Positions 36,097-37,029 of a stretch of 64,000 nucleotides of DNA are shown here, piece after piece. The stretch lies in NCBI RefSeq assembly GCF_001677475.2, contig NZ_CP015229.1; one strand, written 5' to 3'. The DNA is from Escherichia coli (GTDB lineage Bacteria > Pseudomonadota > Gammaproteobacteria > Enterobacterales > Enterobacteriaceae). Below the pieces are notes generated by a model. The model did not search any database, was not told where the DNA came from, and saw nothing but the letters and a program-made list of their open reading frames with translations. The first letter of the stretch is position 1. Every line of letters begins with the position of its first letter. The translations under genes and the position numbers were made by a program.

Positions 36097-36432
36097 TTAT
36101 GGCCTGTGTCGTTTTAGCCCGTAGGGGCATATTTGCAGAATGCAACGGTTATTAAAGCATTCATTAAATACGTTATCTGAATTTGCAGGGCATTCTTGGC
36201 TGTTTTTGATTAAATCCCAGAATCTTTTATTGAATGGTACAACGTTGTAAATGGTTACAGGTAGCACTTTGTTATTGAGTACGATACCTGTGTGAGTCAG
36301 CGTAAATATACTTTCAGGAGGTAAGAAAACATCCGATTGATACCAGATTATTAATTTTATTTTACTCCATATGGCTGAAAAAGATATTCCACATGATGGC
36401 TGGATAACTGTATCAATCACAATCCACTTCAT
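36097..36432 (-). CDS. Hypothetical protein (111 aa) in AT-rich island, opposite to late transcription
   Basis: ORF only; local AT-richness and reverse orientation suggest a moron; possible degraded gene. Confidence 0.35.
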
Positions 36433-36693
36433 TTAGTTTCCTTATTTATGCCTTGCTGGTGATGTTCTGAAAAGTATAAATGATAATTTTGAATGTAAAC
36501 CATAGAGCAGAACTGTTTTTCTGATTTTGTTTATTGTTTATTTAAAATGCAGGGTGGTTTATATCTCGTCTTGTAGTTTATCCATGCATATCTGCTTTAT
36601 GATGAGGTTTTATTTAAAGTATGGTTTTGTGTTTTTTTCTGTATTGCATGTCAGGTATTTTAAAGAATTATTTTTTAGATGGTGGAAAGAACC

Positions 36694-37029
36694 ATGGCAT
36701 TTAAACACTATGATGTTGTCAGGGCGGCGTCGCCGTCAGATCTTGCGGAAAAGCTGACACACAAACTGAAAGAGGGCTGGCAGCCATACGGCGGACCGGT
36801 TGCCATTACGCCGTACACACTGATGCGGGCGGTGGCTATTGAAGGAGAGCCACAGGTCGGCCCTTCATCTGAGCCGGACTGGTTCTACGTGGTTGTGCTT
36901 ACCGGACAGTCCAACAGCATGGCCTACGGTGAAGGGCTTCCGTTACCGGATTCTTACGATGCTCCGGATCCGCGCATTAAACAGCTGGCGCGCCGCAGCA
37001 CGGTAACTGGCATTTTTAGCAGAGCCTGA
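36694..37029 (+). pseudogene. 5' fragment of nanS-like sialate O-acetylesterase gene (DUF1737 + start of SGNH/DUF303 domain)
   Basis: ORF 36679..37029; MAFKHYDVVRAASPSDL... then VVVLTGQSNSMAYGEG (GQSN esterase motif) ending after ~110 aa; full-length phage NanS-p is several-fold longer. Confidence 0.5.

Follow-up and report, generated by a model that had tools for sequence, protein, structure and literature searches.

RssB binding and sigma-S stabilisation have been shown for only two members of the family to which the gene described here is related, K-12 IraM and CFT073 IraL (PMC4045071, PMC10844676). [quoted passage not shown] Fourteen IraM residues make these contacts in three clusters, composed of I4, I6, W22, K26 and I42, of T13, C14, F18, W30 and L75, and of I61, Y62, H63 and I64, and, according to its published description, the protein is a beta-barrel of the PmrD type whose C-terminal region is unstable, the tail having been cut off for crystallography (PMC10844676). 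[quoted passage not shown] It raises both the level and the half-life of log-phase sigma-S in CFT073 and in Shigella sonnei (PMC4045071). In pathogenic E. coli, elevated RpoS in log phase has been connected with genes of the IraL type. CFT073 iraL is transcribed in log phase, the 5' end of its mRNA has been mapped by 5' RACE, and a fragment covering -100 to +33 complemented an iraL deletion (PMC4045071), while the level of the mRNA was 1.6 log2-fold higher at 37 °C than at 23 °C (PMC12890032).

The window analysed here, which means the whole 64-kb stretch of E. coli DNA, contains a conspicuously AT-rich island at positions 36097-36700, where the GC content is 0.331 as compared with 0.513 across the whole window. 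This is the lowest-GC 604-bp stretch of the window (0.12% of all 604-bp windows are equally low), and the GC profile shows it to be the sole trough with a GC content of 0.38 or less in 64 kb. An ORF of 111 codons plus a stop codon, which starts with ATG, occupies 36097-36432 on the minus strand with a GC content of 0.36, and a 246-bp spacer at 36433-36678 has a GC content of only 0.28. Runs of 5-7 T or A residues are found at 36203, 36378, 36516, 36632 and 36671. The original prediction of an AT-rich island holding a 111-aa minus-strand ORF opposite to the late genes therefore agrees well with these data, because the genes for the Q-like antiterminator (32836-33531, phrog_304), the class II holin (about 37137-37343) and the lysozyme (38442-38975) all lie on the plus strand. 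The predicted terminator at about 36040 also exists, as a plus-strand hairpin at 36030-36047 followed by a T-run to 36052. It constitutes the 3' end of an STnc100-family prophage sRNA gene (35877-36052, plus strand), which forms the left border of the island. On the right, the island is bordered by the remnant of a truncated DUF1737/nanS-p-type esterase gene (36694-37029, plus strand). GC content and alignments both mark the DNA between the start of the 111-aa ORF and that of the nanS-p-type gene (36433-36693, 28% GC) as an AT-rich regulatory spacer. A 76-aa plus-strand ORF at 36527-36757 lies in this conserved spacer and overlaps the nanS-p start, and no support was found for it as a gene.

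The 111-aa product belongs by sequence to the IraM/IraL/RssC family and is very probably an RssB anti-adaptor of the IraL type. The NCBIfam model NF007393, "anti-adapter protein IraM", covered residues 1-110 with a score of 163.9 bits against a curated cut-off of 121, phrog_4407 matched over the full length (E 7e-69), and the crystallised IraM(1-78) of PDB 8TWD was matched with an E value of 6e-33 and 67-68% identity over residues 1-78. The sensitive profile searches that had been proposed for this ORF thus lead to the IraM family. Pairwise amino acid identity is 100% to a protein of strain GB089, 89.2% to CFT073 IraL, 75.7% to the allele of Stx2c phages and 63.6% to K-12 IraM, and RefSeq names the identical GB089 protein, which is encoded at a near-identical locus, anti-adapter protein IraM. 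The assignment is based on NCBIfam, PHROG, PDB and pairwise identity. A Pfam scan of the protein gave zero matches even at E 10, but this does not count against IraM/IraL membership because Pfam has no model for the family. The exact 111-aa protein is found on 724 public contigs under the name IraM, so the gene, which had been taken for an orphan, is in fact a widely conserved and annotated member of the IraM family. It is therefore already known, as an annotated allele of a characterised gene family, and is nothing new in kind. No second iraM-like copy was found in the 64-kb window.

The locus of the gene was compared with those of K-12 iraM, CFT073 iraL, ATCC 25922, O55:H7 DEC5B, an O157:H7 Stx2c prophage and GB089. 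CFT073 iraL, which also encodes 111 residues, occupies the same prophage slot, extending from tRNAs, DUF3927 and an STnc100-like RNA to a DUF1737 esterase remnant, in the same orientation antisense to the late genes. The gene order Q, variable cargo with tRNAs, DUF3927, STnc100-like RNA, iraL in reverse, nanS-p-type esterase, holin and lysozyme is common to the window, the potB prophage of CFT073, ATCC 25922 and O55:H7 DEC5B, although the esterase gene is often truncated among these syntenic loci. Intact versions of the gene are thus conserved elsewhere, both as the identical protein in other genomes and in synteny in CFT073, ATCC 25922 and DEC5B. The upstream cargo differs, in that the window carries an AraC-like regulator, two tRNAs and a TerB-family gene, whereas CFT073 carries IS200 and three tRNAs. 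The proteins themselves differ by 12 substitutions relative to CFT073 IraL: A20V, V35A, V51M, R70T, D73N, A83T, S85T, F89L, I98T, and RHR versus QQS in the tail. The K-12 relative is matched by the same family model and has the same PmrD-like fold, but it is 4 residues shorter than the window protein, and its gene adjoins ycgX immediately beyond the annotated boundary of the e14 element, unlike the window gene in the slot between Q and lysis. Mg starvation induces K-12 iraM through PhoP, but the window gene lacks a significant PhoP box. Another relative, an IraM-family gene of Stx2c phages and some Stx2a phages of O157:H7 (for example, phage 2851 and strain FRIK2533), is also in reverse orientation immediately upstream of nanS-p, but it encodes 107 aa and lies directly downstream of stx2B, which places toxin and anti-adaptor in one slot. 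In FRIK2533, this 107-aa gene is found directly between stx2B and nanS-p. IraM-family genes occur in 46 phage records, mostly of Stx2/Stx2c phages, and are unannotated in many of them.

The upstream DNA also conforms to the IraL type, and the context, the promoter and the transcription start equivalent of CFT073 iraL all have matching counterparts in the window. The 32-nt RACE sequence of CFT073 iraL matches the minus strand at 36434-36465 with 2 mismatches, where none would be expected by chance, so that the transcription start equivalent is placed at 36465, leaving a 33-nt 5' UTR (36433-36465) with the Shine-Dalgarno sequence AAGGA. Reading upstream from this start, a sigma-70-type promoter can be proposed at 36473-36499, with TATACT (36473-36478) as the candidate -10 hexamer and TTTACA (36494-36499) as the candidate -35 hexamer, separated by a 15-nt spacer. 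The -100 to +33 region, which includes the promoter and the 5' end, is identical to that of CFT073 at 125 of 134 positions, and the entire stretch between the ORF and the esterase gene at 244 of 262, with conservation also in ATCC 25922 and DEC5B. The start equivalent and the candidate hexamers fall where a promoter had been predicted, at 36440-36520. A generic promoter scan reported one internal site only (36381-36354), and it missed the candidate promoter because it allows spacers of 16-18 nt alone. The shortness of the 15-nt spacer is nevertheless a point against the assignment of the gene as a self-promoted iraL. As for the alternative IraM subtype, the upstream DNA of the window gene gave no alignment with the upstream region of K-12 iraM, and no homologous PhoP-dependent promoter was found upstream of the gene. 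The PhoP-box-like sequence TGTTTATTGTTTATTTA at 36528-36544 has 1 mismatch, but at least one such match appeared in 56 of 100 shuffles, which is the chance level, and the upstream region of K-12 iraM itself contains PhoP-box-like sites with 2 mismatches at best. K-12-type PhoP control is therefore unsupported, given the unalignable upstream DNA and a lone site at chance level, and the site at 36528-36544 should be regarded as a lead rather than as evidence.

Whether the gene is still functional in its present surroundings deserves consideration, because an ORF that looks intact may have lost its expression or function if the prophage is defective, and the original prediction itself had allowed for a degraded remnant. 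The neighbours do show decay. In the nanS-p-type gene at 36694-37029, only the DUF1737 N-terminal part is left, corresponding to about 110 of about 630 residues; it matched phrog_9498 and, within the 634 positions of phrog_143, positions 1-114 only, and its GB089 equivalent is a partial pseudogene in RefSeq. The 213-aa gene at 37347-37989 (plus strand, phrog_1085), located between holin and lysozyme, is split into two overlapping ORFs by a 1-bp insertion (G) near 37645 as compared with GB089 and is a frameshift pseudogene in the window. The esterase truncation and this frameshift suggest that the prophage is defective, and because of them the expression of the iraL-type gene in this strain is not guaranteed. 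The promoter region is, moreover, very AT-rich, and such promoter DNA is of the kind silenced by H-NS. The gene itself, however, is of full length, and its start codon, Shine-Dalgarno sequence, promoter and mapped start site are all conserved. It differs from the GB089 gene by 2 synonymous and 0 non-synonymous differences, while dN/dS is 0.32 against CFT073 iraL (12.5 non-synonymous and 9.5 synonymous differences) and 0.13-0.18 against the Stx2c-phage and K-12 alleles. Ratios of 0.1-0.4 across alleles indicate purifying selection acting on the protein. In addition, CFT073 transcribes its orthologue in log phase and induces it at 37 °C, as mentioned above. With an intact frame, conserved expression signals and such ratios, the gene is not a degraded remnant, and a silent or decaying state of it is very improbable.

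The family is widespread in E. coli, where 4757 of 5426 complete genomes carry a member. The allele of the window is rare, with only 27 of 4774 matching records showing at least 95% nucleotide identity. The 90-95% band comprises 1414 records, including iraL of the CFT073 type, and the remaining nucleotide matches are either K-12-type iraM at about 70% or the O157 type at 78%.

The stretch from the Q region to nanS-p/holin, in which the island is situated, is the classical place for cargo in lambdoid phages, and Stx phages carry stx there. The reverse orientation in a lambdoid late region and the conserved promoter support the view that the gene is a separately acquired, self-promoted moron, but the proposal that such a moron serves anti-phage defence or superinfection exclusion did not survive the analysis. 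In its favour are the generic signature of low GC content, reverse orientation, own promoter and prophage cargo slot, and the presence nearby of a TerB-family gene and a DUF3927/TciB-like gene. PADLOC, however, returned no family at E values up to 0.1 for the 111-aa protein or for its TerB, DUF3927 and AraC-like neighbours, and the protein belongs to an RssB anti-adaptor family with a solved RssB complex and a demonstrated RpoS-stabilising function, so that a dedicated defence role is very improbable. Raised RpoS might affect phage infection indirectly, but such an effect would be secondary.

The structure predicted for the protein is consistent with its assignment as an RssB anti-adaptor. An AlphaFold2 model built from a five-sequence alignment was confident over residues 1-80 (pLDDT 73-92) and of low confidence over residues 81-111, and it contained seven strands within residues 2-66 followed by a helix at residues 69-77. 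When the model was compared with PDB using Foldseek, the top match was IraM bound to RssB (8twd_A, E 3e-9), on which the predicted structure was superposed with a target-normalised TM score of 0.90 and an rmsd of 1.3 Å over 78 columns. The fold predicted for residues 1-78 is thus that of IraM in the crystal with RssB, an antiparallel beta-barrel of the PmrD type flanked by a helix, and this result agrees with the published description of IraM (PMC10844676). The next matches were three structures of PmrD (PDB 4HN7, 2JSO and 2RQX), which has the same fold with target-normalised TM scores of 0.72-0.76. PmrD is, like IraM and IraL, a small protein that binds a response-regulator-type protein, but its partner is PmrA, its identity to the window protein is 15%, and it is devoid of the Cys-rich C-terminal tail. 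At the RssB-contact positions known from IraM, the window protein is identical to K-12 IraM at 10 of 14, with three conservative replacements (T13S, L75I and I64V) and one other difference (H63N) among the rest, and identical to CFT073 IraL at all 14. It is conceivable that a protein of this fold, which is shared with the PmrA binder PmrD (PMC10844676), has diverged toward a response regulator other than RssB or toward a different outcome on RssB, considering that IraL and IraM already differ in the RssB domains they bind and that 12 substitutions separate the window protein from IraL, but the full identity of the contact positions to those of RssB-binding IraL and the mere 15% identity to PmrD leave such a divergence with almost no probability.

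Taking the gene to be an iraL-type anti-adaptor gene, we propose by analogy with the characterised homologues that its product most likely binds RssB, blocks the delivery of sigma-S to ClpXP and thereby raises RpoS in the lysogen. In this view, the iraL module serves lysogenic conversion, is read from a sigma-70 promoter of its own and has been inserted in the direction opposite to late transcription. Binding to the response-regulator-like adaptor RssB would be the task of the N-terminal beta-barrel of PmrD type (residues 1-78), and RssB bound in this manner would be unable to hand sigma-S (RpoS) to ClpXP, which would result in the stabilisation of RpoS. The window allele would then stabilise RpoS as IraL does, and the lysogen would be expected to have a higher general stress response, even during exponential growth. 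The AT-rich promoter region might be subject to silencing of the H-NS type and to thermoregulation. On induction, Q-antiterminated late transcription, which would run antisense through the gene, might shut it off.

The C-terminal tail, residues 79-111 (window 36100-36198), has features of its own. It contains four cysteines, C81, C92, C97 and C102, arranged in the pattern C-P-x(9-10)-C-x4-C-x4-C-P-[YF]-G, and these do not vary among IraM, IraL and the Stx2c-phage allele and align with those of a Salmonella RssC-like sequence of only 37% identity. The structural paper on IraM (PMC10844676) and the 2013 genetics paper make no mention of cysteine or zinc in IraM. The four-cysteine tail may be a metal or redox motif. 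Of the 12 substitutions relative to CFT073 IraL, 7 fall in these last 33 residues. One could speculate that the rare allele is functionally distinct from IraL through its altered tail, that the motif is a metal- or redox-sensing module which governs how stable or active the anti-adaptor is, and that the convergence with STnc100 and late transcription couples RpoS stabilisation to lysogeny and turns it off on induction, but we consider this combination of ideas rather unlikely. What goes beyond the cited papers is limited to minor points, namely, the invariant tail cysteines, the concentration of differences in the tail, and the unannotated genes beside stx2.

What stands out most in the base composition of the window is, in consequence, an ordinary, annotated lysogenic-conversion gene, and the initial guess of a defence moron is corrected accordingly. 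[quoted passage not shown] Given the link of IraL to RpoS and the presence of alleles beside stx2 in Stx2c/Stx2a phages, the slot is relevant to the stress tolerance of pathogenic lysogens.

The AraC-family regulator, which consists of 237 aa, is encoded at 34082-34795 on the plus strand between Q and the tRNAs, with a GC content of about 0.42. Its best NCBIfam match was YdeO, at 104 bits against a cut-off of 348, followed by GadX, and it also matched phrog_1450. It is probably a prophage-encoded acid-resistance or virulence regulator. No evidence was found that it controls the iraL-type gene, and the idea that it drives the gene in analogy with AppY was rejected because AppY does not up-regulate iraM (PMC10057817). 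Downstream of it are a tRNA with the anticodon CAT (34822-34897, plus strand), which ARAGORN assigned to Met, and a tRNA-Arg (TCT; 34999-35075, plus strand). CFT073 and Stx phages have Ile/Arg/Arg tRNAs at this place. The genes for the TerB-family "tellurite resistance" protein (35249-35674, plus strand, phrog_632) and for a 54-aa DUF3927/TciB-like small membrane protein (35671-35835, plus strand, phrog_1470), which overlap each other, represent more cargo just upstream of the STnc100 sRNA gene.

STnc100 RNAs form a recognised family of prophage sRNAs (bioRxiv 10.64898/2026.05.13.724894). The window copy scored 93.7 bits with Rfam RF02076, for which the gathering score is 47, and its fold was only marginally better than those of shuffles (z -1.9). 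It is convergent with the iraL-type gene, whose stop codon is about 45 nt away. No T-run follows the hairpin at 36030-36047 on the minus strand, so that transcription of iraL might continue into the sRNA gene in antisense. A role of STnc100 as the pR' late leader was considered but is not established, given a second candidate promoter and terminator directly after Q. A promoter-like site, TTGCAA-17-TATATT, is found at the end of the Q gene (33515-33543), and after it comes an 11-bp hairpin at 33595-33624 with A-runs and T-runs on both sides; the 33515-33624 region may thus comprise a late promoter, a short leader and a terminator, separate from STnc100.

A second reverse gene is present in the lysis cassette, between holin and lysozyme. 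It lies at 37999-38367 on the minus strand with a GC content of 0.41-0.42 and encodes a 122-aa protein of phrog_1853, whose function is unknown; its PADLOC match was at the chance level only. Rfam searches also detected the sok antitoxin RNA of a hok/sok module at 30652-30826 (plus strand) and the DicF sRNA at 22456-22507 (minus strand), both of which are typical of the early regions of lambdoid or Qin-like prophages.
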